A stretch of DNA of 12,847 nt from Gemmatimonadota bacterium (GCA_039591655.1 JBDHDE010000066.1:1-12847); one strand, 5' to 3'. Positions 1 through 12,847 are shown, numbered from the stretch's first letter. The notes: generated by a model from the sequence alone, not told the origin. Translations and numbers: made by a program.

Positions 1-980
1 CCCACGATCTGGCGTGTGATGAGCCGTAGAAAGCTCTGCATGCCGGAAACAGGTGCTCGGAGCTGGTGCACGGAGGTGCGTATGAATTCCGCTCGGCGCC
101 GGTCTGCGTCGCGCAGTCCTTCGTTTGCGGCCTCCAGCGCCTTTGTTGCGGTCTTGATCCTGCTCTCGAGCTCCCCGTTCCAGCGCGCGTGCTCGGCTGC
201 CGCCTTACGGAGCTGTGTGCTCATTGCGTTGAATGCGGAGCAAAGCTGCCCGATCTCGTCATGGCTGGAGACTGGAATCTCCACATCGAGGTCTCCACGC
301 GAGACGCGCTCCGTGCCGCGCAGCAAACGCGTGACAGGCGTCCTCACGAACCGCTGCATGACCAAGGCCACGGCCACCCATGCGAGGAGTACGGCAGCGC
401 TGCCGGAGAGGAGAGCTGCACGGCGGACACTGACGATGCTGGCGTCCACGGTGCGTAGCGAAAAGACCGCATCCAGTACTCCGAGCACCTGCTGGTCCCT
501 GTCATGGCAGTCGTAGCACGGAGGCGCGTTGTATATCGGCGTGATGATGGCAAGCCTGCGTGAGCCGTCGGGGGTGGCGAAGATTCTGCCTCGTTCCAGG
601 GGTGGGCGGAGGACCTGGGGTGGTCCGTCGGCGTGGCACTGGATGCACATCTCGTGTGTCATGTCGACAGTATCGTTTATCTCTGATCTGTCGGTCGAGA
701 GAACGATACTTCCGTCCTTGTCGAAGAGGCGGATCTTCTCGAGCCCGTCTTCTTGGGCATAACCATCGAAGACGCTGAGGATCTCAGCGCGTCTATGGGC
801 GAGCATCTGCGGGCGAATGCTGCGTGCGGCGATGTCGCTCATCCGGCCCGTGTGCAGCACGGCATGCGACAACAGCTGTCGTTCGTGGGTGCCGGCTGTG
901 TGTAACAGCAAGAGGGCGACAGCGGCGAGGAGGATGACCCCGACGACGAGCATGACCCTGAATAGCAGCGAGTGCAGCAC
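1..980 (-). CDS. Membrane sensor histidine kinase with diheme c-type (2x CxxCH) extracytoplasmic domain, HAMP and HisKA; runs off the left edge
   Basis: Translated by hand because it has no stop in the window and is missing from the track. Open from GTG at 980 (AGGT 7 nt upstream, in-frame TAG just before; alternative ATG at 953). TM1 VMLVVGVILLAAVALLLL, CIQCH (633-647), CYDCH (504-518), TM2 AALLSGSAAVLLAWVAVALVM, HAMP PVTRLLRGTERVSRGDLDVEIPVSSHDEIGQLCSAFNAM, coiled coil, H-box EFIRTSVHQLRAPVSGM (His codon 66-68). Confidence 0.9.
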   Translation of the reverse strand, partial: MLHSLLFRVMLVVGVILLAAVALLLLHTAGTHERQLLSHAVLHTGRMSDIAARSIRPQMLAHRRAEILSVFDGYAQEDGLEKIRLFDKDGSIVLSTDRSEINDTVDMTHEMCIQCHADGPPQVLRPPLERGRIFATPDGSRRLAIITPIYNAPPCYDCHDRDQQVLGVLDAVFSLRTVDASIVSVRRAALLSGSAAVLLAWVAVALVMQRFVRTPVTRLLRGTERVSRGDLDVEIPVSSHDEIGQLCSAFNAMSTQLRKAAAEHARWNGELESRIKTATKALEAANEGLRDADRRRAEFIRTSVHQLRAPVSGMQSFLRLITRQIV

Positions 981-1012: not shown

Positions 1013-1210
1013 TCAGCTCCCGTCCGTTACAACCTCAGTGACCGTGCGTCGAGTGTAGAGAGACGAGTGACCCTGTTCGTGCCAGAGCTGAACCTCGAAT
1101 CCGGCAGCGGCATACCGCTCCTGCGCCGCGCGTGCCTGTTCCTCGGTCTCGTGGTCCTCGCCATCCCACATGTACTTCTTGCCGTCGAAGAAGCGAACCT
1201 TCTCTGTCAT
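1013..1210 (-). CDS. Small hypothetical protein (65 aa)
   Basis: ATG start with AGGTG upstream; co-oriented and fills the mvhD-kinase gap; natural-looking acidic/aromatic sequence (RFFDGKKYMWDG...GFEVQL...LYTRR). Confidence 0.75.
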   Translation of the reverse strand: MTEKVRFFDGKKYMWDGEDHETEEQARAAQERYAAAGFEVQLWHEQGHSSLYTRRTVTEVVTDGS

Positions 1211-1289: not shown

Positions 1290-1706
1290 TCACACCCGGT
1301 AGGAGCTCGGGCCCAGCTCACGGACTGCCTCGCTCATGTCGCTGACCACCTGCGCGAAGCGAGGCGCCTCGGATGCGGAGATCCACTCGAGCCTGAATCG
1401 CTCTGGTTCGATGCCGAAGTCCTCGAGCATCAGCTCTATCGCCTCCTTGCGCTTCTCCGTCCGCAGATTGCCCTCGAGGTAGTGGCAGTCGCCGGGATGG
1501 CAGCCGCAAATGAGCACGCCGTCTGCTCCCTTGGTCAGGGCGTCAATCACCAGGTTGGGGTGGACCATTCCGGAGCACATGACGCGAATCACGCGCGGAT
1601 CCGGCGGATACTGCAGCCGGGAGACACCTGCGAGGTCCGCGCCGGCGTAGGAGCACCAGTTGCAGCAGAAGGCAATGATGATGGGCTCGAAGTCGTCGTT
1701 TGCCAT
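1290..1706 (-). CDS. mvhD: MvhD/FlpD-family [2Fe-2S] protein (HdrA-associated electron-transfer subunit)
   Basis: Motifs AFCCNWCSYAGADLAG, IRVMCSG, GADGVLICGCHPGDCHY.EGN, ERFRLEWISASE; directly follows hdrA; AGAGGA RBS upstream. Confidence 0.95.
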   Translation of the reverse strand: MANDDFEPIIIAFCCNWCSYAGADLAGVSRLQYPPDPRVIRVMCSGMVHPNLVIDALTKGADGVLICGCHPGDCHYLEGNLRTEKRKEAIELMLEDFGIEPERFRLEWISASEAPRFAQVVSDMSEAVRELGPSSYRV

Positions 1707-1724: not shown

Positions 1725-4700
1725 TCACGCTTCCTGCAACGCGGCATCGACCATCGCGCTCAACTGATCGAGCCGGAAGTTGCGGATGAATATCCCTTTC
1801 TTGGGACACGTGGCCTGACAGACCCCGCAGCCCTTGCACAAGGCCTCATCCCGCTCGACCGTCTTCTTGATGCTTCCCTTGTGCATGTACTCGATCAGTG
1901 TGAGTGCATTGTACGGGCAGGGGTCGATGCAGTACGCGCATCCATCGCAGTTGTCATCTACCAGTTCGGAGATGGTGGCGTCGAGTTCGATCTCGTCCTT
2001 GGACAGAATCGTAGCTGCTCTTGCGGCGGCAGCGTGGGCCTGTGCGATGCTCTCGTCCACAGACTTGGGCGAGTGTGCCAAGCCGCACATGAAGACCCCG
2101 TCGGTCGCGAAATCAACTGGACGCAGCTTCATGTGTGCCTCGAGGAAGAACCGATCCTGATTGAGAGGCACTTTGAAGAGCTTGCCTACTTCCTCGGCGT
2201 CATTCCTGGGCACGATGGCAGGAGCCAATACCAGTAGGTCGCAGTCGATACGGAGATTCAAGTTCAAGAGCGGGTCGAGGGTAGAGACCTGAAGCCTGCC
2301 GTTGGTCGCGGAGACCTCAGGCTTGCGCTGCTCGTCGTATCGTAGGAAGCGTACGCCCTTGCCTCGTGCATCGGTGTAGTACTGCTCCAGTACGCCGTAC
2401 GTACGGATGTCTCGATAGAGCACATGGACGGCTATGTCCGGGCTGATGCCCTTGAGCGCTATCGCGTTCTTCACCGCCTGCGAACAGCAGATCCGACTGC
2501 AATACGGCCGGGACTCGTCTCTCGAGCCAACGCACTGGATCATGACGACCGACTTGAGTTCGTGGAGCTCTGGTCGGCGCTGGGCGATCCACTCCTCCAG
2601 CTGGCGCTGCGTCAGGACGCGGGGGTGCACGCCGTACAGGTATTCGGTTGGCTCGTAGTGTGTCGCTCCCGTAGCCACGATTGCGACGCCGTGTGCCACT
2701 TGTCTGTCGACGCCGTTGTTTCGAATGGTGGACGTGAAGCTGCCGACGGATCCCTCGACGGCGGCGAGCGAGCTGCTTAGATGGAGCGTGATTCTGGGAT
2801 GATTGGTCACCCTGGCGATCGTCTCTGACAGGTTTTGCCGGGGGTCGCCGCCAGTGAGCAAGCTGTGGATGTGCCTGAGGTTGCCTCCCAAGTCCGGCTC
2901 CCGCTCGACGAGATGGACTGCGAAGCCCTGGTCGGCCAGGTTCAGCGCGGCGATCATGCCAGCCATGCCGCCGCCCAGCACGAGGGCGTCGTTGTTGACC
3001 TTCAAGGTGCCCTTGTCGAGGGGCTCGAGCAGCCTGAGCTTGGCGAGGGCCATTCTCACCAGGTCCTTTGCCTTGCGTGTAGCCTTCTCCGGTTCGTGCA
3101 TGTGTACCCACGTGCACTGGTCGCGGATATTGGCCATGTCGAACAGGTATTCGTTGAGGCCTGCCTCCCGGCACGTGTTGCGGAACAGCGGCTCGTGGGT
3201 GCGCGGGCTGCATGATGCGACCAGCACGCGGTTGAGGTCGTGCTCCGCGATCATCTGCTTGATCGCCTCCTGCGTGTCAGTTGAGCACGTATAGAGGTTG
3301 TCCTCCGCATACACGACGTTGGGCAGGGTCCTGGCGTACTCCACGACAGCCGGGACGTCCGCCACGCCACCGATGTTCTTGCCACAGTGGCAGACGAATA
3401 CCCCGATGCGCGGTTCCTCGCCCCGCACGTCCTTCTCAGGGGGGTACTCCTTCGCCCGGATGAGCGACCCCCGTCCGTCCTCGAGTAGTGCCATCGCCTT
3501 GGAGGCACTCGCCGAGGCCTCCATCACCGTCTCTGGGATATCCTTCGGTCCGGTAAACGGCCCACAGACGTACACCCCCGGGCGTGAGGTCTCGACCGAT
3601 CCTAGGCCCTGAGTTGCCGCAAAGCCATGCTCGTCCAGCTCGATGCCGAACGTGTCCGCCAGCTCGTGTGCCTCAACAGGCGGTGCCAGGCCGGTAGACA
3701 GCACGACCATGTGGAACTCCTCGGTCACGTGCCCAGCGCCGGCCGTCTGGTAGTCGAGGCGAAGATTGTTGTTGGCCGGGACTTCCTTGATCGATGATGG
3801 AGTGCAGCGGACGTACTTGATGCCTAACTCCTTGGCGCGGTTGTAGTAGGCGTCGAAGCCCTTGCCAAAGGCTCGAAGGTCGATGAAGAAGATGGTGCAA
3901 TCGATGTCCGGTTCGTGCTCCTTCGCGATGATGGCTTCTTTGGTCGCGTACATGCAGCAGACCGAGGAGCAGTAGTCCCGATCTGTCTCGCGTGAGCCGA
4001 CGCACTGAATCCACGCGATCTTCTTGGGAGGTGCCTGGTCGGATGGCCTGAGCACCTTCCCTAGGTAAGGTCCGCTTGCCGAGAGGATACGCTCGAACTG
4101 CAGACTGGAGATGACGTTGGGAAACCGTCCGTAGCCGAGTTCTTTCTTGGCGTGGGGGTCGAACTGCTGGAATCCGGGAGCCAGTACTGCGGCGCCGACC
4201 TCGATTCCTTGAATCTCGTCCTGTTGGTCGAAGTCAATGGCGTCGGCCTCACAGAAGCTCGCACACGCTTGGCACGTGCCTCTGAGCAAGTGCATGCACG
4301 TATCGGGGTCGATGGTGGCGACCTTGGGTATGGCTTGCGCGAACGGAAGGTAGATGGACGACCGCCGGGCGAGACCCATGTCGTAGTCCGACGGTATGGG
4401 TCTGGGTTCTAGCAGCGTGACCTTGGACAGATCGACGACGTCGACTGGGCACACTACTTGGCATGCGCCACATGCCATACAGATGGGCGAGTGCTTGTCG
4501 TACGGCGTGGTGATGTTGCGATCTGGACCGCGGTGGGCAAAGTTGATGGCGCCGACCCCCATCCTCTCTTGGCATACCCTGACACAGAGGCCGCACAGAA
4601 TGCAGTTGTCGTGTTTCTTGGGGAACCGGGTCTCGTCGATGCCGAGGTCGAGTGCAAGCTCCTTGACTGCGCGGGCTTCGGGGCACCGGGCGAGCAGCAA

Positions 4701-4970
4701 CTCCACCATCACCTTCCGTGTGCGACGGACCCTCTCGGTGTTGGTACTAACCACTAGTCCGTCCTGAGCCGGATAGACGCAGGAGGCCTCGATCCTCGAG
4801 CCACGTGACATCTCGACTTCCACGAGACATACACGACAGGCGCCGTACGGTGCTAAGGCCCGATGGTGGCAGAGCGTGGGGATCTTGACGCCTGCCTCTT
4901 CAGCAGCCTGTAAGACCGTCCTTCCGGGGTCGACATCGACCTCTATACCGTCAACCGTCAGTCTCGCCAT
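1725..4970 (-). CDS. hdrA: Fusion of a NuoG/HydA-type N-terminal Fe-S domain ([2Fe-2S] + 2x[4Fe-4S]) to a large double-module heterodisulfide reductase subunit A lacking its own first Rossmann motif
   Basis: N-terminus IPTLCHH...GACRVCLVEV...ASC, CILCGLCVRVC, CMACGACQVVCP. HdrA motifs follow: YDMGLARRSSIYLPFAQAIP, GYGRFPNVISSLQFERILSASGP, IQCVGSR..YCSSVCCMYATK, GPKDIPETV, FVCHCGKNIGG, CSPRTHE, NIRDQCTWVH, second Rossmann VLGGGMAG, second IQCVGSR..YCSRICCSQAVK, FLEAHMKLRPVD, C-terminal CDGCAYCIDPCP/CKGCGVCQATCP. ATG 4970 preferred; in-frame GTGs at 4973 and 4979 are possible. Confidence 0.93.
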   Translation of the reverse strand: MARLTVDGIEVDVDPGRTVLQAAEEAGVKIPTLCHHRALAPYGACRVCLVEVEMSRGSRIEASCVYPAQDGLVVSTNTERVRRTRKVMVELLLARCPEARAVKELALDLGIDETRFPKKHDNCILCGLCVRVCQERMGVGAINFAHRGPDRNITTPYDKHSPICMACGACQVVCPVDVVDLSKVTLLEPRPIPSDYDMGLARRSSIYLPFAQAIPKVATIDPDTCMHLLRGTCQACASFCEADAIDFDQQDEIQGIEVGAAVLAPGFQQFDPHAKKELGYGRFPNVISSLQFERILSASGPYLGKVLRPSDQAPPKKIAWIQCVGSRETDRDYCSSVCCMYATKEAIIAKEHEPDIDCTIFFIDLRAFGKGFDAYYNRAKELGIKYVRCTPSSIKEVPANNNLRLDYQTAGAGHVTEEFHMVVLSTGLAPPVEAHELADTFGIELDEHGFAATQGLGSVETSRPGVYVCGPFTGPKDIPETVMEASASASKAMALLEDGRGSLIRAKEYPPEKDVRGEEPRIGVFVCHCGKNIGGVADVPAVVEYARTLPNVVYAEDNLYTCSTDTQEAIKQMIAEHDLNRVLVASCSPRTHEPLFRNTCREAGLNEYLFDMANIRDQCTWVHMHEPEKATRKAKDLVRMALAKLRLLEPLDKGTLKVNNDALVLGGGMAGMIAALNLADQGFAVHLVEREPDLGGNLRHIHSLLTGGDPRQNLSETIARVTNHPRITLHLSSSLAAVEGSVGSFTSTIRNNGVDRQVAHGVAIVATGATHYEPTEYLYGVHPRVLTQRQLEEWIAQRRPELHELKSVVMIQCVGSRDESRPYCSRICCSQAVKNAIALKGISPDIAVHVLYRDIRTYGVLEQYYTDARGKGVRFLRYDEQRKPEVSATNGRLQVSTLDPLLNLNLRIDCDLLVLAPAIVPRNDAEEVGKLFKVPLNQDRFFLEAHMKLRPVDFATDGVFMCGLAHSPKSVDESIAQAHAAAARAATILSKDEIELDATISELVDDNCDGCAYCIDPCPYNALTLIEYMHKGSIKKTVERDEALCKGCGVCQATCPKKGIFIRNFRLDQLSAMVDAALQEA

Positions 4971-5023
4971 CACCCGCACCCTGTGAAAAGCGATGCTCAG
5001 AGCCCGAACGCGCAGCTCGCGGC

Positions 5024-5494
5024 CTATCCCCCCGCCCCTCCGTTCTCCACATCTGTCGTGTCGAAGCGGTACACCTCGTCATCGATCCTGTGCTCGTAAT
5101 GCAGTGCCAGATCCGGTCGCCCCACGAGTATCGTCCGCACAGTTTCACCGATATCACCCACCGGCCTGCAATCCGGATGGCTGCGACGAAAGGATGCCTT
5201 GACAATCGTTCCCTTTCCGCGCCGCGATGTGATCTCAAAGCTCCCTTCGGCCTCCCTGGCGGCCTGCGCCAGCAGTGGCAGCCCCAAACCGACCCGCCGC
5301 GTTGTCCTCGTTGTGAAGAAGGGATCCAGCGCCCTCCTCTTCGTTTCCGCATCCATGCCCTTGCCGTCGTCCTTGATCTCGATTGAGAGCAGGTCCTGCC
5401 TGGTGTCATCCACGATCAGGATCGCGACTCTCCTTGCGGACGCCGCAATGGAATTCTCCACTATATCCAGAATGTGAAGAGCGAGATCTTGCAT
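5024..5494 (-). CDS. Stand-alone HATPase_c (GHKL) protein of the type found in [FeFe]-hydrogenase operons
   Basis: N-box LHILDIVENSIAA, G1 DDGKGMD, F-box DPFFTTR, G2 VGLGLPL, GKGT; no HisKA or sensor domain; ATG abuts the PHP stop (TGAATG). Confidence 0.9.
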   Translation of the reverse strand: MQDLALHILDIVENSIAASARRVAILIVDDTRQDLLSIEIKDDGKGMDAETKRRALDPFFTTRTTRRVGLGLPLLAQAAREAEGSFEITSRRGKGTIVKASFRRSHPDCRPVGDIGETVRTILVGRPDLALHYEHRIDDEVYRFDTTDVENGGAGG

Positions 5495-6211
5495 TCACTG
5501 CTTCACTATTGTGCGACCGTCGGCGTGTCTCAGCGCCTTGGTGATCTCATCGAGCGTAGCCTCCTCGAGCAGAAAACAGGTGAAGCTCCTGCCGATGTCA
5601 TTCAAGGAATGAGCATCGGAGAAGCGGACGACCGGGAAAGGATTCCAGCTGGTGACGGAGGAACGCGGTGATACTTCTACCGCGTCCAGCGGGAGGCCGT
5701 CGGGAATGAAGCCGAGCTGGCCAACGAGTCCGAAGCGCTCGCGGTCGATGTGAGATGCGATCGCCAAGCCTCCGCAGTCGTGGATGGCGTTCACGGTCTG
5801 TTCCAAAGTGAAGCTGGTGGCTCCGATCAAGAGCTTCGCAGTGGAACCCAGTGCGTTGTCGTATTGATCGACCACCGTCTGCGAGCCGAATACATCCTCG
5901 TCGTTCTCCCCAGGGAGGTTGTCGTAGACGAGGTCCTGCATGCACTGCAGCTGGTCCTGGTCCTGGAACAGACCCAGAATGTGGACTTCCTCGCGCGACG
6001 TGATCTCCATCCCCGGTATGATGGGGAGGTTCTGTCGCCGGCCGGCCTGGAGGACGGCACTGACGTTCTCCGCGGAGTTGTGGTCGCAGATGCCGATGAT
6101 ATCGAGGCCCATCTGTTTGGCCTTCTGGATGATCGCAGTCGGCACCATCTCCGGCTCCCCGCAGGGGGAGAGGCAGGTGTGCAAGTGCAAGTCAGCTCGC
6201 ATTTCCCTCAT
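5495..6211 (-). CDS. PHP-domain metal-dependent phosphoesterase
   Basis: ADLHLHTCLSPCG, ICDHNSAEN, GMEITSREEVHIL, ASHIDR, SDAH motifs; ATGA overlap with the upstream DRTGG gene at 6208-6211. Confidence 0.92.
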   Translation of the reverse strand: MREMRADLHLHTCLSPCGEPEMVPTAIIQKAKQMGLDIIGICDHNSAENVSAVLQAGRRQNLPIIPGMEITSREEVHILGLFQDQDQLQCMQDLVYDNLPGENDEDVFGSQTVVDQYDNALGSTAKLLIGATSFTLEQTVNAIHDCGGLAIASHIDRERFGLVGQLGFIPDGLPLDAVEVSPRSSVTSWNPFPVVRFSDAHSLNDIGRSFTCFLLEEATLDEITKALRHADGRTIVKQ

Positions 6212-6585
6212 GAGGCGTGCGCGGGCGATGCTGCGCCCTTGTTGGGCATTCCCCTGATGCCGAGTTTGTAGAGCCGTCCGGCGAGCTCAAATGTGGGGAG
6301 CTCCGATACCATGATCGGTATGTGTTCGACCTGCGCCTTTGCGAGCGTGTCCTCGTCCGGCTCCCTGCCATTGACCAGTATGATCCCCGCAAGATCGTTC
6401 AGGCTCGCCACCGCAACGATGTTCTGATGGCCCTGGAGGGTGATCCAAAGGTCCCCCTTCCTGGCGTGAGCCATGACATCGCTCATCAGGTCACTGGAGT
6501 ATCCGCCGGTGACCTCAGCATCCAGATGATCACTGCCCGTGCGGATCCCCAGAGCGAGTTTGTCAACTACCTCAGCCAGTTTCAC
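6208..6585 (-). CDS. DRTGG-domain (HPr kinase N-terminal-like) protein
   Basis: VTGGYSSDLMSDVMA..KGDLWITLQGHQNIVAVASL, PTFELAGRLY; GTG start with GGAGG RBS, overlapping the end of the upstream kinase gene. Confidence 0.88.
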   Translation of the reverse strand: MKLAEVVDKLALGIRTGSDHLDAEVTGGYSSDLMSDVMAHARKGDLWITLQGHQNIVAVASLNDLAGIILVNGREPDEDTLAKAQVEHIPIMVSELPTFELAGRLYKLGIRGMPNKGAASPAHAS

Positions 6586-7501
6586 GGTGCCCTCCGGTCA
6601 TGATCGAAATCTTGAGGTGCGTGCCTCTGCCTGGTGCGGAGTCGAGTTCCATGCTGTCCGCGCACCTCTGAATGTTGTTGAGTCCCATCCCGGCACCGAA
6701 GCCGAGTTCGCGGACCCACTGCGGCGCGGTGGAATAGCCCGGTCGCAGAGCCTTCTCGACATCGGCGATTCCGGGCCCTGAATCATCCACCTCGACCCTG
6801 ATCTCGCCCGGTCCGACCTGCGCGACGATTGATCCCCCCTTTGTGAACACGATCAGGTTCATCTCCGCCTCGTACGTGGCTATCGCCACTCGGCGAACCG
6901 TGGCGGGATCCAGACCGAGCCGTCGTAGGGTCTGCTTGAGTCGGCTGGAGCTCTCTCCCCCTCGCGCGAAGTCCTGGCCTACCACGCTGTACTCGAACAC
7001 GAGTTTCGTTCGGTCAGCGATGATGTCGTCGAATATGTGACTTGCTCGGTAGTGATGGATCTCCTCTTCGTGATAGTCGATCTCTAGCTTCTTCAGCAGT
7101 CCTGCTATGATGTCGCCCTTCGTGATCACACCGATCAACCGGCCGGAATGTCGGTCAGTCACCGCGAAGCGGCCGAAGCCAGTCTTGTCGAATCTGCTGA
7201 CAGCTTGGACGAGCGGTTCGTCATCGCAGAGAGTCTCAACGTGCTTCGTCATCTTCGCTTCGATGACGGAGTTCTGCTCCTTGCCATAGAGCCACTTGAT
7301 GAAGTCCTCGAGGCTGATGATTCCCACGAGTTTTCCGCCATCGACCACCGGTGCGCCGGAGATTCGTTGCTGCTGGAAGAGCTCCCGCAACTGGCTCATG
7401 GGGGTGTCCGGCCGCACCGTGATCACATCCGTAGTCATCACCTCGCGGACCTTCATCTCGTAAACCAGCTCCTGCACTCTGGTGATTGGTCGGTCCTGCA
7501 C
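6572..7501 (-). CDS. CBS-pair domain fused to an RsbT/RsbW-like anti-sigma-type Ser/Thr kinase (HATPase_c)
   Basis: CBS repeats VREVMTTDVITV...ISGAPVVDGGKLVGIISLEDF and MTKHVETL...LIGVITKGDII; kinase motifs ATYEAEMNLIVF, DDSGPGIADVEKALRPGYST, GAGMGLNNI, GRGT. Exact start (GTG 7501) uncertain. Confidence 0.9.
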   Translation of the reverse strand: MQDRPITRVQELVYEMKVREVMTTDVITVRPDTPMSQLRELFQQQRISGAPVVDGGKLVGIISLEDFIKWLYGKEQNSVIEAKMTKHVETLCDDEPLVQAVSRFDKTGFGRFAVTDRHSGRLIGVITKGDIIAGLLKKLEIDYHEEEIHHYRASHIFDDIIADRTKLVFEYSVVGQDFARGGESSSRLKQTLRRLGLDPATVRRVAIATYEAEMNLIVFTKGGSIVAQVGPGEIRVEVDDSGPGIADVEKALRPGYSTAPQWVRELGFGAGMGLNNIQRCADSMELDSAPGRGTHLKISIMTGGHRETG

Positions 7502-7508
7502 CAGATCT

Positions 7509-7865
7509 CTATTCCCGGAAGTCAGAGACGCCTAGGAGACCGCTCTTGTACAAACGGCCGCAGCTCTCGAACATCGGCAACGTGGTTCTCAGCAAGGGCA
7601 ACCCCTGGACGTCGGCCATTGTCACGGTGTCGTCATCGGGCCTTTTGCCGCGGACGAAGCAGATGGCCACGATGTCGGCCATCTCGGCCGTGCGTACGAC
7701 CTGGGGGTTGGTCAGCCCTGTCAGCAACAGAGAGCCAGGCTTACCGTAGGCGAGGACGTCGCTCATCAAGTCCGCGCCACAGCCCATTGTGAGCTCTCTG
7801 GCGAGCCCGTCCTCGCCGGCTATCACCTCTGCGTCGAGGATCTCCCTAACATCATCGAGTGTCAT
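7509..7865 (-). CDS. DRTGG-domain protein
   Basis: GCGADLMSDVLAY, LLLTGLTNPQVVRTAEMADI..ICFVRGKRP, PMFESCGRLY; AGGAG upstream of the ATG. Confidence 0.9.
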   Translation of the reverse strand: MTLDDVREILDAEVIAGEDGLARELTMGCGADLMSDVLAYGKPGSLLLTGLTNPQVVRTAEMADIVAICFVRGKRPDDDTVTMADVQGLPLLRTTLPMFESCGRLYKSGLLGVSDFRE

Positions 7866-7891
7866 CGTTCTATGAGCGCTCCTCCCTCGCC

Positions 7892-10800
7892 TCAGTCCTC
7901 TGCTTCCCTATCGCACCGTATGCAGCGTTTGGCCTCTGCCACGGCCATCTCCCGGTTGAAGCCCAGTTGGACCTGTTTGAAGGCTCCGGCGCGTTCCGCG
8001 ATTGGCAGCAGAGGCATTTGGGGCTTGTGGAGCTTCTCGATCTCCTCGTCCGTCAGCTCGACCGCCGCGACGTCCAGCGCCGGTCGGGTCACACGGTATT
8101 GTCGAGTGACGGGGTGGCCCTCGATGTAGTTGTGGATCATCTGGGCGGCGATCTTGCCGTGCGCCATGGCGTCCACGACGGTCGAAGGTCCGCTGACGAC
8201 GTCCCCGCCGGCGAAGAGCCCCTCGATTCCCGTATGGAAGGTCTCTGGATCGGCCTCTATCGTGCTCCAGCGGGTGATGTTTAGCCCGTTGCCATCTGCC
8301 AAGGGCCGCACGTCGGGTTCCTGGCCAATGGCCGGGATCAGGGTGTCGATCTCTACTGTGAACTCAGATCCGGCGATTGGAACGGGCCTTCGTCTGCCGC
8401 TCTTGTCGATGTCTCCCAGCTCCATCCTGATGCACTCCAGGCGCGTCAGTCTTCCATCGTCTGACAGCGCCCGTACCGGTGCTACCAGTACCTGAAGGTC
8501 GATGCCCTCCCGGTCGAGCTCCTCGACCTCCTCCTTGGCCGCCGGCATCTCTGCCCTGGTTCGCCTGTAGAGTATCCTGACCTCCTTGCCGAGGCGGCTG
8601 GCCACTCTAGCTGCGTCGACGGCGGCATCCCCTCCGCCAATCACGGCTACCTTCTGCCCGATCGTGATCTCGTGTCCGAGATTCACCGCACGCAGGAAAT
8701 CCACCGCATCGATGACCTGTGGGGAGTCCTCCCCGTCGATATTGAGTCTCAGACCCTTGTGGGCTCCTATGGCGATGAATACCGCGCGATACTGCTCCCT
8801 CAACTCGGACAGTTGGACGTCCCTGCCGACGGTAGTGTTGGTACGGATCTCCACGCCGACGTTGCGGATGGCGTCGATGTCATAGCGGAGGATGTCCTTG
8901 GGCAGCCTGTAGTCCGGGATGCCGGTGGCCAGCATGCCACCTGCGACCGGAAGCGACTCGAAGATGGTCACGCCATATCCTTCGAGGGCCAGATAGTAGG
9001 CGCACGTCAATCCGGCCGGCCCGGAGCCTACGATCGCGACGCTTGCGTCTCTCGGTGGCTTCGGCGGCGGTGTGAGCTGGAGGGCCTGCTCGCGCTCATG
9101 GTCGGCCAGAAACCGCTTGAGCGCCCTGATGGAGATTGCCTCTCCACCTCCTGCGCCGGACCGGCACTTGTCCTCACAAGGTGCCGTACAGACCCTGCCG
9201 CAGATAGCGGGGAGCGGGTTTTCTCGCCTGACGAGCTCCGCGGCCTCGTCGAACCGTCCCTGCGCGATCAGCCCGATGTAGCACGGCACGTCCTGGCCGA
9301 TGGGGCATGTGTGTTGGCACGGAGAGGAGATGATCCCCTTGCAGACAGCCGCCGGACATCTCTTGTGCTCTATGTGTGCCTCATACTCCTCTCTGAAGTG
9401 ACGCAGGGTGCTGAGCACGGGGTTCGGGAGGGTCTGTCCCAGTCCACACATGGAGGCGTCTCTTACGGCCTCTCCCAACTCCTCGAGGAGCGTCAGGTCC
9501 GTCTCTTCCCCTTCTCCGGCAGAGATCTTGTTGAGCAGCCCGAGCAGGACCTCCGAGCCTTCTCGGCAGGCAGTGCACTTGCCACACGATTCGTCATTGG
9601 TGAATTCGAGGAAGTACTTGGCGATATCGACTATGCAGGTATCGTCATCCATGACGACCATACCGCCCGAACCCATGATGGCGCCAACCTCGCTCAGACG
9701 CTCATAGTCGACGGGCATGTCGAGCAGGTGACCCGGAATGAAGCCGCCGGAGGGCCCCCCGGTCTGCACCGCCTTCAACCTCTTCCCGTGAGGGATGCCC
9801 CCGCCGATGTCGTAGATGATCTCCCGCAGGGTGATGCCCATCGGCACCTCGACCAGACCGGCGTTGTGGACGTTGCCTGCCAGGGAGAAGACCTTAGTCC
9901 CTTTTGAAGTATCGGTGCCGAGGGCCGAGAACCACTCGACCCCCCAGTTGATGATGGCCGGGACATTCGCCCAGGTCTCAACGTTGTTGATGCTCGTGGG
10001 GCTGCCCCAGAGGCCGGACTGGACGGGGAACGGAGGACGTACGCGCGGCTCAGGTGCTCTGCCTTCGATGGAAGCGATGAGCGACGTCTCCTCGCCACAT
10101 ACGAAGGCTCCGGCTCCCTGGAAGATCTCCAGGTCGAAGCCGAAGCCGGTACCGAGGATGTCCTCTCCCAGCAATCCGTATTCATACGCCTGTCTGGCAG
10201 CACCCTCCAGCCGCTCAATGGCCAGTGGGTACTCGATCCTCACGTAGACGTATCCCCTGGATGCTCCCATGGCGTATGCGCCGATTGCCATGCCCTCGAG
10301 GACGGAGTGGGGGTCGGCCTCGATGATGCTACGGTCCATGAAGGCTCCGGGGTCGCCCTCGTCGGCATTGCAGATGACGTATTTTGGTGCGCCTTCGGAG
10401 CCCCGGCACAGCTCCCATTTCAAGCCCGTCGGGAATCCGGCGCCGCCTCTGCCCCGGAGACCGGATCGCTTTACCGCTGCGATGACCTCCTCCGGTGTCA
10501 TGGAGGTCAGAGCCTTGGCCAGCGCCTTGTAGCCGTCCCTCGCGATGTACTCCTCGACCTTATCCGGATCGATCATGCCGCGATTCCGTAGAGCGACGAG
10601 TCTCTGATCCTTGAAGAACGGAATCGCCCGCAGTTCCGGGATCGGCGCCTCCTCCCCAGGAAGCGCGTACATCAGCGATGTGACCGGTCTTCCCTTCAGG
10701 AGGTGCTCCTCTACCAAGTGGGGGATGTCTTCCCTCTTGAGACGCTGGTAGAAGATCCCGTCAGGCTGGACTACCAGGATCGGACCTCTCACGCAGAGAC

Positions 10801-10945
10801 CGCTGGCTCCGGTGGGTACTACCAGGACATCGTCCTGCAAGCCGCGCCGGAGTATCTCGGCTTCCAGGGCGTTTTTGATCTGCAAGGAGCCGTTCGAGAT
10901 GCAGTTCGTGCAGGTGCATATCATCGCGTTGGCTCTATATGGCAT
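7892..10945 (-). CDS. NuoF/HydB-like NADH:FMN subunit fused to a GltD/NfnB-like FAD/NAD(P)H oxidoreductase domain
   Basis: N-terminal thioredoxin-like domain; [72 protein letters not shown]...[17 protein letters not shown]; then [78 protein letters not shown], terminal [17 protein letters not shown]. Confidence 0.93.
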
Positions 10946-10959
10946 CGCGCTACGTCTCC

Positions 10960-11346
10960 TTACAGGCTTCTCTCGCTGCCTGCTGCCAGCGCGTATTCCG
11001 CAACGATCTTGCCGCCAAGGACGTGCTCCACCAGAATTCTCCTGGCCTTCTCGGGAGTCAGGTCCACGTACTTCACTGCCGGCTCATCCTGCAACTCGAC
11101 TGTAATCATGGGCTCCCGGCTACAAAGACCGGCGCAACTGGAGATCGTCAGGACGACGTCCTCGGTCTTCCTGTCCTCTAGCTCGTCCATTAGCGCCTTC
11201 ATTACGGTCCTGGCGCCCGCGGCTATACCGCAGGTGCCCATGTGGACGACGACCTTGGCTCGTGCGACGCCTCCTTCCCGCATGAGCATCGTTCGCTTGA
11301 TCTTCTCGCCAATCCTGTCCAAGTCGCCAGGTTGGATCTTTGGCAT
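10960..11346 (-). CDS. Thioredoxin-like (2Fe-2S) ferredoxin-family subunit, HydD/HndB-like
   Basis: VVVHMGTCGIAAGAR...SSCAGLCSREP...YVDLTPEKARRILVEHVLGGKIV; lies between nuoE- and nuoF-like genes as in tetrameric hyd/hnd operons; GGAG RBS. Confidence 0.9.
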   Translation of the reverse strand: MPKIQPGDLDRIGEKIKRTMLMREGGVARAKVVVHMGTCGIAAGARTVMKALMDELEDRKTEDVVLTISSCAGLCSREPMITVELQDEPAVKYVDLTPEKARRILVEHVLGGKIVAEYALAAGSERSL

Positions 11347-11361
11347 CGTGCCACTCCGTGC

Positions 11362-12240
11362 CTATCTGTAGTCTCTGAGGAGCTCCGGAACCCCGGTCTC
11401 CCTCATATATCCGAAGACGTCCTCGTCGACCGTTACAACCGGTGACTGACCGCAGCAGCCCAAGCAGTTGACTAGCTCCAGGCCGAACTGCATGTCATTG
11501 GTTACTCCACCGACGTCGATGTTCAGGTGCTTTCGAGACGCCCTCAGGATCCTCTTTCCGCCCTTGACATAGCATGCCGTTCCCATGCAGACGCGGAGGA
11601 GATGCTTGCCCTTCGGAGTGAGGCTGAAGGCGTTGTAGAAGGTGGCCAACCGGTATGCCAGGCTGAGAGGAATGTCCAGCTCTTCCGAGAGATACCGGAC
11701 AGCGGCCTCCGGCAGGTAGTTGTAGAGCTCTTGTGCCTCCTGGAGGACAGGTACAATCGCTCCCCTGCGACCCCGGTACTTGTCTACGATCTGTCGGAGG
11801 CTGCCCAGTTCCTCTGGCAGCGGTTCAGCGGCGGGCCTTCCGGCCGGTTCGAGATAGGGCCTATTCCTGACGAGGCAGTGTTGGACACACTCTGCACATC
11901 CCGTGCACTTGTCTGGATCGACGAAGCGTGCCTTCTTCCTCACCCGCACCTTGAAGCCGCCGGCTGCTCCTTCGATGGACTCAACCTCGGAGTAGGTGAG
12001 CTTCTCGATATTGAGGTGGCCACCGCAGTCGACCATGCGCGGGGCGAGGGTGCACATGGCGCAGTCATTCGTCGGGAAGGTCTTGTCGAGCTGGGCCATG
12101 ACACCGCCGATCGAGGGGCCCTTCTCGACGAGATAGACCTTGTAGCCGGACTCGGCGAGGTCGATGGACGCCTGCATACCTCCCACTCCGCCGCCGACCA
12201 CTAGTACGGCGCCGATTTTCTGGCCGTTGTCGTTAGCCAT
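11362..12240 (-). CDS. Fusion of an HdrA N-terminal fragment (Rossmann FAD motif, DKTFPTNDCAMC, one [4Fe-4S] motif) to a NuoE/HydC [2Fe-2S] subunit, 292 aa
   Basis: ATG at 12240 with GGAGGA RBS, overlapping the hdrB end by 8 nt. AVLVVGGGVGGMQASIDLAESGYKVYLVEK, QLDKTFPTNDCAMC, RFVDPDKCTGCAECVQHC, Pro/Ala linker, then IVPVLQEAQELYNYLP, ATFYNAFSLTPKGKH, VCMGTACYVKG, VNCLGCCGQSP. Confidence 0.93.
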   Translation of the reverse strand: MANDNGQKIGAVLVVGGGVGGMQASIDLAESGYKVYLVEKGPSIGGVMAQLDKTFPTNDCAMCTLAPRMVDCGGHLNIEKLTYSEVESIEGAAGGFKVRVRKKARFVDPDKCTGCAECVQHCLVRNRPYLEPAGRPAAEPLPEELGSLRQIVDKYRGRRGAIVPVLQEAQELYNYLPEAAVRYLSEELDIPLSLAYRLATFYNAFSLTPKGKHLLRVCMGTACYVKGGKRILRASRKHLNIDVGGVTNDMQFGLELVNCLGCCGQSPVVTVDEDVFGYMRETGVPELLRDYR

Positions 12241-12847
12241 TGACCCGTCCTCCGACCTGCCACCCTCCGGCGGCGACGCCCGAGAGCAACTCGTCGGCAC
12301 TCACGAAGTGCCGTTGTATTCCCAGCCGGTCAGGTGGTATCCCGAGAGCCAGCCCAATGAGCTGGGTGAAGTGGAACACCGGCATGTGGTACTGTGACTC
12401 GTACCTCACCTCGATCTCTGCTTGCCGCGTGTCGAGATTCGCGTGACACAGCGGGCAGGCTGCGGCGATCGCGTTTGCACCGACTGCCTTGGCGTTTTCC
12501 AGGATGTCGTGCGTCAGCTTGAGCACCACGTCGGTCTCGGTGAGAGCAAACGCTCCGCCGCAGCACTCGGTCTTGTAGGACCAGTCCAGCGTTGCGATGC
12601 CCAGCGCCTGAAGCAGGCGATCCATGCTCATTGGGTACTCGCACTCGTCGAACTGCATGACCTCGGGTGGCCTCGTGAGCAGGCAGCCGTAATAGCAGAC
12701 GACCTTCAATTCGGGAAGCGCGGTGGTCACGGCGGTCCCCACATCCGACGTGTCGAAGATCTCCAGCGGGTGCAGCACCCTGACTTCGGTCGGGAGGGGA
12801 GCGTCGATGACCTGGGTGAGTTGGTTCCCGAGCTCGGGATCCGCAGC
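12233..12847 (-). CDS. hdrB: Heterodisulfide reductase subunit B (CCG-domain protein), 5'-truncated by the window edge
   Basis: Frame open from the right edge (AADPELGNQLTQVIDAPSPTEVRVLHPLE...). Motifs VVCYYGCLLTRP, DWSYKTECCGG, AACPLCHANLDTRQ, PVFHFTQLIGLALG. Confidence 0.92.
   Translation of the reverse strand, partial: AADPELGNQLTQVIDAPLPTEVRVLHPLEIFDTSDVGTAVTTALPELKVVCYYGCLLTRPPEVMQFDECEYPMSMDRLLQALGIATLDWSYKTECCGGAFALTETDVVLKLTHDILENAKAVGANAIAAACPLCHANLDTRQAEIEVRYESQYHMPVFHFTQLIGLALGIPPDRLGIQRHFVSADELLSGVAAGGWQVGGRVNG

Follow-up and report, generated by a model that had tools for sequence, protein, structure and literature searches.

A 12,847-nucleotide (nt) stretch of Gemmatimonadota DNA (GCA_039591655.1 JBDHDE010000066.1:1-12847), referred to here as the window, encodes a double HdrA that is split into two complementary halves, one fused to the first and the other to the last subunit of a Bfu-type, NADH-linked flavin module. 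We propose that this double HdrA is cut inside its inserted ferredoxin domain, that the Bfu module lies in the cut, and that the two halves reassemble with HdrCB, MvhD, and the MvhAG hydrogenase, with low-potential electrons passing straight to Bfu. We give this reading as a whole a probability of roughly 0.6. Gene order, the complementarity of the halves, invariant ligands on both of them, their co-divergence, and a downstream hydrogenase are observed; the electron route is modeled on solved structures of HdrA and of BamE, the double HdrA of class II benzoyl-CoA reductase (BCRII). The architecture is a real and conserved variant of known modules and is apparently undescribed.

The smaller fusion is a 292-residue chain whose residues 1 to 124 are an HdrA N terminus, recognizable by the motifs GGGVGG, DKTFPTNDCAMC, and CTGCAECVQHC, the last cysteine of which (C122) is encoded at nt 11877 to 11875. 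A linker of about 22 residues leads from there into a NuoE/HydC domain (PF01257, residues 149 to 292). The larger fusion, of 1081 residues, opens with a [2Fe-2S] NuoG/HydA N-terminal domain, carries CMACGACQVVCP at residues 164 to 175 (nt 4481 to 4446), and continues with IPSDYDMGLARRSSIYLPFAQAIP as HdrA resumes. An initial annotation of the window had read HdrA(N)-NuoE and NuoG(N)-HdrA(C) fusions at these motifs, and translation of the open reading frames (ORFs) and domain matches confirm both. The halves also prove complementary, with nothing missing, as that annotation had claimed. On the hidden Markov model NF040770, residues 11 to 125 of the 292-residue chain match profile positions 141 to 256, and residues 189 to 500 of the 1081-residue chain match positions 254 to 564; moreover, residues 12 to 124 of the small chain align without gaps to residues 146 to 258 of the solved HdrA 5ODC. 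Among the rows compared, the unsplit sequence closest to each half is the intact, 1003-residue double HdrA of locus L140, our further reference. Residues 8 to 127 of the small chain align with its residues 3 to 122 (68%), and the large chain covers its residues from about 122 to 1000 (58%), with no gap between the halves. They overlap only in the NuoG domain's final Cys motif, which occupies the position of the first ferredoxin motif of HdrA. In all split loci viewed, the cut falls right after the first CxxCxxCxxxC of the inserted ferredoxin domain, which agrees with the ferredoxin insertion point named at the outset. This domain is described as the low-potential exit of HdrA (PMC9012536; BCRII preprint, bioRxiv 10.64898/2026.04.10.717634).

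The cofactor ligands are divided along the same cut. The core of the first TrxR module (TrxR1) is spread over two genes about 7.5 kb apart, a departure from the single polypeptide that defines double HdrA. From the 292-residue chain come the flavin adenine dinucleotide (FAD)-binding Rossmann motif, C60 and C63 of the DCxxC motif, the counterparts of Cys194/Cys197 in HdrA and Cys59/Cys62 in BamE, and a half-ferredoxin (C112, C115, C118, and C122). The 1081-residue chain supplies, within about residues 189 to 500, the second ferredoxin half (C225, C233, C236, and C240) and the remainder of TrxR1 (E293, C323, C334, C338, C339, and K344), followed by the HA3 domain (518 to 655), TrxR2 (656 to 1000), and a C-terminal ferredoxin (1005 to 1060). 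All of the double-HdrA motifs were found, namely, the inserted 2x[4Fe-4S] ferredoxin (4 + 4 Cys over two genes), the HA3 domain, and the C-terminal ferredoxin. C60, C63, and the four half-ferredoxin cysteines are invariant in 113/113 N-half fusions, as are the four cysteines of the second half-motif, E293, the HA4 ligands C323, C334, C338, and C339, and K344 in 76/76 C-half fusions. In intact doubles of about 1000 to 1050 residues the counterpart of K344 lies at 268 to 305, and it agrees with Lys280 of BamE by position alone. C63 aligns with Cys197 of 5ODC, which ligates cluster HA3 across subunits (PMC9012536).

Because the ligands are divided over the chains, one FAD and three Fe-S clusters are predicted to be built in trans from both polypeptides; likewise, the four CxxCxxCxxxC motifs would make two complete ferredoxins only with one made in trans. 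The initial annotation had held that the first FAD site must be assembled from two polypeptides. The divided, invariant ligands agree and extend the claim to the 2x[4Fe-4S] ferredoxin and to the HA3 ligand equivalent to Cys197; physical assembly is what we infer from them. It is very probable that the two HdrA halves assemble in trans into one unit. Conservation of the pair among homologues, together with the ligand counts, supports the view that the intact ORFs form a conserved, functional-looking pair and not a decayed one. An AlphaFold single-chain model of the 292-residue protein (mean predicted local distance difference test score, 73.6; predicted template modeling score, 0.44) has low confidence at residues 44 to 59, 105 to 109, and 119 to 140, as might be expected of an incomplete domain, and was not used as evidence.

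The two halves also recur and diverge together. Loci were fetched by the N-terminal fusion, giving at least 79 genome and at least 80 metagenome loci (159 examined). Among the matches listed, the N half precedes nuoE in 77 loci, and the C half is seen in 46 of these; the remaining 31 end at the locus edge, at most 147 nt from the last cassette gene. No C half without an N half occurs among the 159 listed loci, all of which were fetched via the N half. Separate trees for the two halves place them in the same HdrA lineage. For 41 split pairs, N-half and C-half distances correlate with a rho of 0.70, a value reached in 0/2000 permutations (0.48 for 86 intact genes), and in 34/41 split loci both halves share a top-5 unsplit neighbor. 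These figures come from FastTree trees in which the N half has only 116 columns and kin are not independent.

What fills the cut has the gene order of a Bfu-type module, HydC-HydD-HydB-HydA(N). In the BfuC/NuoE part (residues 145 to 292), the [2Fe-2S] C1 ligands C218, C223, C259, and C263 are invariant among homologues, and the best fold matches of the predicted 292-residue model are the BfuC chains 9MQX_C, 7P5H_C, and 7Q4V_C. Residues 1 to 536 of the BfuB subunit comprise a Trx domain, a flavin mononucleotide (FMN)/NADH site, the B1 cluster, and the B2 site. The best PDB match is 7T2R_B (E of 1e-229 over residues 3 to 540), and the B2 site C437/S475/H524/C530/C535 aligns with C438/C476/H525/C531/C536 of that chain. 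The B2 His, retained in 63/63 NuoF rows, is one of the residues (His plus Cys) that separate Bfu from non-bifurcating NuoF (Schut et al., PMC9304861). The block had first been called a diaphorase; an NADH-linked FMN module it is, but not a plain diaphorase, given the B2 His/Cys ligands and the N-terminal Trx domain of bifurcating HydB/BfuB. The BfuA part (residues 1 to 180) carries a [2Fe-2S] and 2x[4Fe-4S] set, A1/A2/A4 only, with no His-ligated A3 motif, and its best match is 9MQX_A. Its eight cubane cysteines are invariant in 76/76 C-half fusions, and its last cluster motif lies about 14 residues from the resumed ferredoxin domain in 25/25 C halves viewed. We regard it as likely that the Bfu module sits at the low-potential exit of HdrA.

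Two features had been overlooked in the initial annotation, namely, a GltD-like FAD/NADPH domain at the NuoF C terminus and the continuation of the operon into an Mvh hydrogenase. First, the B3/B4 ferredoxin domain of the window's BfuB is replaced by a GltD/NfnB-like 2x[4Fe-4S]-FAD-NADPH domain (residues 537 to 1017). The replacement occurs in the window and 10 other loci (8/46 paired loci, plus the genomes G009 and G010); B3/B4 is kept in 46/57 split-locus BfuB rows. Many BfuB-GltD homologues of about 1020 residues were found. The domain carries GGGDAA and YRR motifs, which we take to be of the NADP type. BfuB-borne GltD domains form one clade (11 rows, 100% Shimodaira-Hasegawa-like support) apart from 49 HdrL inserts, and the BfuB cores of this variant fall at three places in the tree. 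Judged by its motifs, the window's module is one that works like a Bfu core and, lacking B3/B4, is not a strict Bfu member. The variant bears on whether a Bfu core needs B3/B4 to bifurcate.

Second, contig C22 of the same genome overlaps the left end of the window by 114 nt, exactly, and carries mvhG, mvhA, and a maturation protease gene (Table 1). The best NCBIfam matches of MvhG and MvhA are VhuG and VhuA, at scores under the archaeal cut-offs of those families. The same-genus genome G010 has the identical order, including the hydrogenase, with marR-hdrC-hdrB upstream; hdrC is absent from the window's assembly. With hdrC supplied by G010, mvhD, mvhG, and mvhA are clustered with hdrABC.

[quoted passage not shown] This FAD would split the electron pair, sending one electron via HA4 and HdrCB to a disulfide/persulfide-type acceptor and the other via HA3, with C63 of the small chain as fourth ligand, into the two-chain ferredoxin HA5/HA6. 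Linkers of about 14 residues to the last cluster of BfuA and about 22 residues to BfuC would tie this domain to Bfu, with no free ferredoxin involved. BfuC would pack on BfuA. In BCRII, the N-terminal bundle of BamG engages BamI (bioRxiv 10.64898/2026.04.10.717634), and by that analogy the two ends of the insert would be brought together. The Bfu FMN would take the electrons on, giving NADH. The second Bfu branch would run through B3/B4 and reduce ferredoxin in most homologues; in the window's variant it would end in the GltD-type FAD and give NADPH. The net reaction for that variant would be 4 H2 + 2 R-S-S-R + NAD+ + NADP+ -> 4 R-SH + NADH + NADPH + 2 H+; it should be reversible, so that H2 evolution would be possible. 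The relevant potentials are -414 mV for H2, about -280 mV for NADH, about -380 mV for NADPH, and about -500 mV for ferredoxin (Schut et al., Table 1, PMC9304861). At 1 to 10 Pa, H2 stands at an estimated -270 to -300 mV, too weak for direct NADP+ reduction. With half of the electrons going to a disulfide-like acceptor, NADP+ would become reducible by H2 at these pressures, which would give the GltD variant a clear use.

Several points weigh against this reading. First, TrxR2 keeps K834 (75/76) where BamE has Gln768, and so, judged by sequence, either FAD might be the catalytic one. Second, B3/B4 is missing from the window's BfuB, and the [2Fe-2S] B5 motif of its N-terminal Trx domain is altered (nt 10945 to 10790, minus strand; CTCTNC...TGASGLC, with the third Cys, Cys48, changed to Ala and a new Cys12, as in 7/63 rows); its FMN module may therefore not be bifurcating at all. 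Third, the Bfu module of BCRII supplies HdrA at the opposite side, by way of the C-terminal ferredoxin and BamF (bioRxiv 10.64898/2026.04.10.717634), so electrons need not flow where the chains are covalently joined. Fourth, in a scan of 70/206 neighboring ORFs plus the C22 genes, chosen as cassette adjacent, the MvhD-side partners vary by lineage (MvhAG, FlxABC with DsrC, MetVF, or FrhB-like), and thus H2 would not be a universal donor. Fifth, the homologue sets were picked for their similarity to the proteins of the window, so that conservation is overstated. Finally, the genome has only one DsrC-family gene, with a single C-terminal Cys and in a sulfur-relay-like cluster; DsrC as the HdrB substrate in this host is accordingly unsupported.

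As an observation in its own right, that cluster (L189, G000:C19, 5806 to 8009) consists of a flavoprotein gene, the one-Cys DsrC/TusE-family gene, and a third gene. From their motifs, the flavoprotein and the third gene are presumably Sqr-like and DsrE-like, respectively. The cluster is possibly a persulfide carrier system.

The same complex and wiring could instead run as confurcation, in which NADH and NADPH (or reduced ferredoxin) would enter via Bfu, join thiol electrons at the HdrA FAD, and leave as H2 via MvhAG, a fermentative or syntrophic sink. Either type of module can run in reverse (PMC9304861), Rnf/Nqr-type membrane genes occur in the genome, and uptake could be done by a further [NiFe]-hydrogenase encoded there, which is group-1-like. 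However, thiol electrons (about -140 mV for CoM-S-S-CoB) pooled with electrons at about -330 to -400 mV would, on a Nernst estimate, reach H2 only at or below a few Pa, and the characterized MvhADG-HdrABC works in the H2-oxidizing direction (PMC5861303). We consider confurcation unlikely.

It is distinctly unlikely, in our view, that the halves reassemble with the fusion acting merely as a tether, Bfu being a mid-potential input, as in BCRII or Moorella HdrA, and the low-potential output lying elsewhere (the MvhD side or free ferredoxin). The BCRII route does run from BamI I3 to BamE E1/E2, BamF, and FAD (bioRxiv 10.64898/2026.04.10.717634), the MetFV-HdrABC-MvhD complex takes NADH as a donor (PMC5861303), and split locus L018 adjoins metVF. 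Against this, the window's MvhD has the standard 138 residues, without the more than 100 extra BamI-binding residues of BamF, and a hydrogenase partner is present in the operon; the spacing of only about 14 residues between the last BfuA cluster motif and the resumed ferredoxin also argues against a mere tether.

A third alternative would make the first HdrA module structural or incomplete only: the last Cys motif of BfuA would pair in cis with the second half-motif, the N half would be a leftover NuoE tag, and TrxR2 would do the chemistry. The motif CMACGACQVVCP of BfuA does align exactly with the first ferredoxin motif of HdrA, the Pro after the fourth Cys is lost in the window's clade (Leu in 106/113), and module 2 retains K834. 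However, all six N-half cysteines are invariant (113/113), 25 loci retain the N half as a separate gene containing an in-frame TGA, cis pairing would orphan the invariant motif at residues 123 to 133 of BfuA, and module 2 has neither a DCxxC motif nor an inserted ferredoxin. We give this version little credence.

An assembly chimera or a decaying insertion is already refuted by independent assemblies: the window is the whole 12.8-kb contig and no single contig among those compared spans its length, but listed homologues cover both junctions, the 11-gene order is repeated in G009, G010, and four metagenome loci, and contigs of the public run X1, possibly the source sample, bridge the junctions. 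More specifically, 117/120 listed proteins cover at least 91% of the 292-residue fusion (60 to 94% identity), and 120/120 listed matches to residues 1 to 300 of the 1081-residue fusion span the C junction (62 to 82%). In X1, a 971-nt contig matches nt 3946 to 4916 with 0 differences and bridges the C junction, and another contig covers the N junction, with a variant at nt 11851, 120 nt from the contig end. GC content is flat across both junctions (0.56 to 0.65).

The closest known system to the proposed complex is BCRII of Geobacter metallireducens, Bam[(BC)2DEFGHI]2 or "Bam-Bfu," in which both modules lie in one complex (bioRxiv 10.64898/2026.04.10.717634; PMC9304861). In the preprint's description, its double HdrA, BamE, carries the bifurcating FAD in the N-terminal TrxR (Lys280, Cys59/Cys62) and shares the complex with an adaptor of the MvhD type, a unit resembling HdrBC, and a HydBC-type module whose BfuA is short. 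Unlike the window's proteins, BamE is one polypeptide, BamG, BamH, and BamI are separate, electrons from Bfu reach the C-terminal ferredoxin through a long BamF, and a tungsten enzyme takes the output of the inserted ferredoxin. The window has a split HdrA with Bfu joined on at the inserted ferredoxin, a short MvhD whose partner is MvhAG, and a BfuB ending in GltD. Neither the window nor the initial 14 kb of C22 nor the upstream region in G010 encodes a tungsten BamB/BamC or an elongated BamF, other parts of the genome lying outside the BamB search. HdrL and ANME-1 HdrA9-11 are likewise double HdrA proteins whose inserted ferredoxin domain holds an NAD(P)H-linked flavin module; mvhD comes next (PMC2702500; PMC9012536). 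HdrL differs in being one chain of about 1480 residues with one insert of about 480 residues, placed about 30 residues further on, after a PQAxP motif, whereas the insert in split loci spans 3 to 9 genes and breaks the chain, and in the window GltD is on BfuB and not within HdrA. Methanogen MvhADG-HdrABC (PDB 5ODC; PMC5861303) shares hdrCB, the HdrA ligands, mvhD, mvhG, mvhA, and the maturation protease, which are present or inferred here. The window differs in its bacterial host, its permuted double-module HdrA, and a two-chain ferredoxin exit capped by Bfu. Finally, the Bfu family (HydABC, NiFe-Bfu 7T2R, Wor-Bfu 9MQX, and Nfn-Bfu/Stn) shares BfuC, BfuB, and a Type-2-like BfuA; in Nfn-Bfu the GltD domain is on BfuA (PMC9304861), whereas in the window it is on BfuB, in place of B3/B4.

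Sections 5 and 6 of PMC9304861 list no Hdr-fused Bfu class. Also, no description of a split HdrA with Nuo/Bfu fusions was found in the literature searched, a coverage that excludes the HdrA classification of Appel et al. 2021, Supplementary Table 1 (1558 BfuB clusters) in PMC9304861, and the supplements to the BCRII preprint. New from the window would be a BfuB that ends in GltD, a hydrogenase joined to the system, and an HA3 ligand shared in trans. According to the 2026 preprint, BCRII is the only characterized enzyme that couples two different bifurcating modules, for aromatic ring reduction; the present architecture points to another such coupling, more widespread and wired in a different way. 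The database labels NuoE, "FAD-dependent oxidoreductase," and plain HdrA mislead, and metabolic reconstructions of sediment anaerobes miss the system. In the natural split, DCxxC and one half of the ferredoxin at the exit sit on a small chain of their own, making an open step of HdrA catalysis directly testable, and an FAD site over two genes, if real, would be a natural on/off handle for the HdrA Cys-disulfide and ferredoxin exit.

In both half-trees the split forms, HdrL, and intact doubles are intermixed. Acidobacterial HdrL falls within split forms, and L007 stands beside Delongbacterial HdrL in both trees. Unconstrained trees need 8 to 10 split/unsplit label changes, and a single split clade is not rejected by the approximately unbiased (AU) test (p=0.058, log-likelihood 127 lower; 44 chosen C halves, 19 rows, L128 left out). 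A nuoE-trx-nuoF-regulators-nuoG block had originally been proposed as an insertion into, or fusion with, hdrA. The module does lie within the cut, but the trees do not show a single split origin or one insertion event. The simplest reading of these sequences would be repeated swapping or loss at the inserted ferredoxin domain. Derivation of HdrL from a split form by Nuo gene deletion is rejected on two grounds, namely, different insertion points and GltD domains that fall into distinct clades. More tentatively, the HdrA ferredoxin exit might be a swappable socket at which a whole Bfu heterotrimer, sometimes carrying an NADPH domain, a single GltD domain, or nothing is exchanged between backbones. 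The window form would then chain up to three bifurcation-family flavins (HdrA FAD, Bfu FMN, and NfnB-like FAD) into a ferredoxin-free maker of NADH and NADPH from trace H2 in marine-sediment bacteria; we hold this broader idea to be possible but doubtful.

In L128 (6538 to 11600), a single-module HdrA with the HA3 domain first has the same split point and the same insert, and its halves group with short HdrA. The unsplit relative L140 (2482 to 16057) has the order hdrC-hdrB-trx-nuoE-nuoF-nuoG(N)-partial hdrA-long mvhD-intact double hdrA-mvhD-small ORF-mvhG-mvhA, a cluster that resembles Bam-type Bfu-Hdr with a hydrogenase standing where BamBC would be.

The regulators that the initial annotation had counted in the inserted block are not part of its core: the block (DRTGG/CBS-kinase/DRTGG/PHP/HATPase) lies inside the insert in only 13/46 paired loci and is upstream in L116. 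The CBS/kinase/phosphatase genes would likely provide optional posttranslational control. Blocks of the DRTGG/CBS-kinase kind are presumably linked to hyd operons; our literature searches found no paper tying the DRTGG/CBS-kinase/PHP/HATPase block to hydrogenases. In P0131 and P0133, homologues of window nt 1725 to 5494, the HATPase gene is fused in frame to BfuA-HdrA(C), giving proteins of 1231 to 1235 residues, with fused and unfused forms both within one 90% cluster. These fusions hint that the ATPase acts on the BfuA-HdrA(C) subunit.

The split architecture is carried by records named Gemmatimonadota, Planctomycetota, Acidobacteriota, Desulfobacterota, Bacillota, Spirochaetota, Cloacimonadota, Ignavibacteriota, Fibrobacterota, TA06, and Bipolaricaulota, as well as one archaeon. 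Its distribution is patchy, with the fusion in 3/11 genomes of the window's genus and 7/301 of a phylum sample matching at an E of 1e-60 or below. No cultured carrier was identified among the named split loci, all of which are metagenome-assembled genomes (MAGs). In 27 loci, mostly Desulfobacterales-like, a stop falls at the C63 position, the codon being TGA in 27/27. In 25 of these the frame ends 66 to 76 residues on, giving a free N-half gene of about 125 residues, and 2/27 read through into NuoE. The in-frame TGA likely encodes selenocysteine (Sec), which is reported in HdrA-type proteins of sulfate reducers (PMC2702500; PMC5109826), and a free N-half protein of this size could hardly act alone. 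A free-standing N half of the Cys type occurs in L145. The window's genome (G000) encodes a tRNA-Sec, although Cys is used both in the HdrA N half of the window and in its MvhD. In the TGA-type loci L030 (16589 to 19954), L031 (7051 to 10506), and L157, the split core is followed by mvhD and FlxC/B/A-like genes, with DsrC in L030; such genes beside the split core would put two NADH-linked modules on one HdrA. At the hdrCB position before the N fusion, L003 (8845 to 9996), L004 (8770 to 9981), L013 (8821 to 9987), L014 (8836 to 9981), and L015 (8821 to 9984) have an ORF of about 385 to 400 residues with no Pfam match at an E of 1e-8 or below and weak HdrC likeness, a candidate alternative high-potential outlet.

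Table 1. Genes of the window and of the adjoining contig C22
Feature	Position	Strand	Remarks
hdrB, 3' part	12233..12847	-	cut at contig edge; second CCG domain whole (C, CC, CxxC)
HdrA(N)-BfuC/NuoE fusion	11362..12240	-	292 aa; ATG at 12240
Thioredoxin-like [2Fe-2S] ferredoxin	10960..11346	-	
BfuB/HydB-type subunit fused to GltD/NfnB-like domain	7892..10945	-	1017 aa; residues 1-536 and 537-1017
DRTGG-domain protein	7509..7865	-	optional regulator block
CBS-pair + anti-sigma-type HATPase (Ser/Thr kinase-like) protein	6572..7501	-	optional regulator block
Second DRTGG-domain protein	6208..6585	-	optional regulator block
PHP-family phosphoesterase	5495..6211	-	optional regulator block
Stand-alone HATPase_c protein	5024..5494	-	optional block; in some homologues fused in frame with next gene
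BfuA(N)-HdrA(C) fusion	1725..4970	-	1081 aa
mvhD	1290..1706	-	138 aa, standard length
Conserved ORF	1013..1210	-	65 aa; no Pfam match; 3' of mvhD
HAMP hybrid sensor kinase, 5' part	1..980	-	continues on contig C22
mvhG	C22:1041-1997		after sensor kinase remainder
mvhA	C22:2010-3449		after mvhG
Hydrogenase maturation protease	C22:3582-4103		after mvhA

A search of the window's MAG found no other HdrA. We take the thioredoxin-like ferredoxin to be HydD/HndB-like. Promoter and terminator scans of the window gave nothing over shuffled sequence (0 versus 2.3 and 6 versus 5.4, respectively). The 65-residue ORF has tblastn matches in 38/180 loci, near mvhD, mvhAG, or HdrL, and is possibly an unrecognized small subunit or accessory of bacterial Mvh-Hdr complexes.

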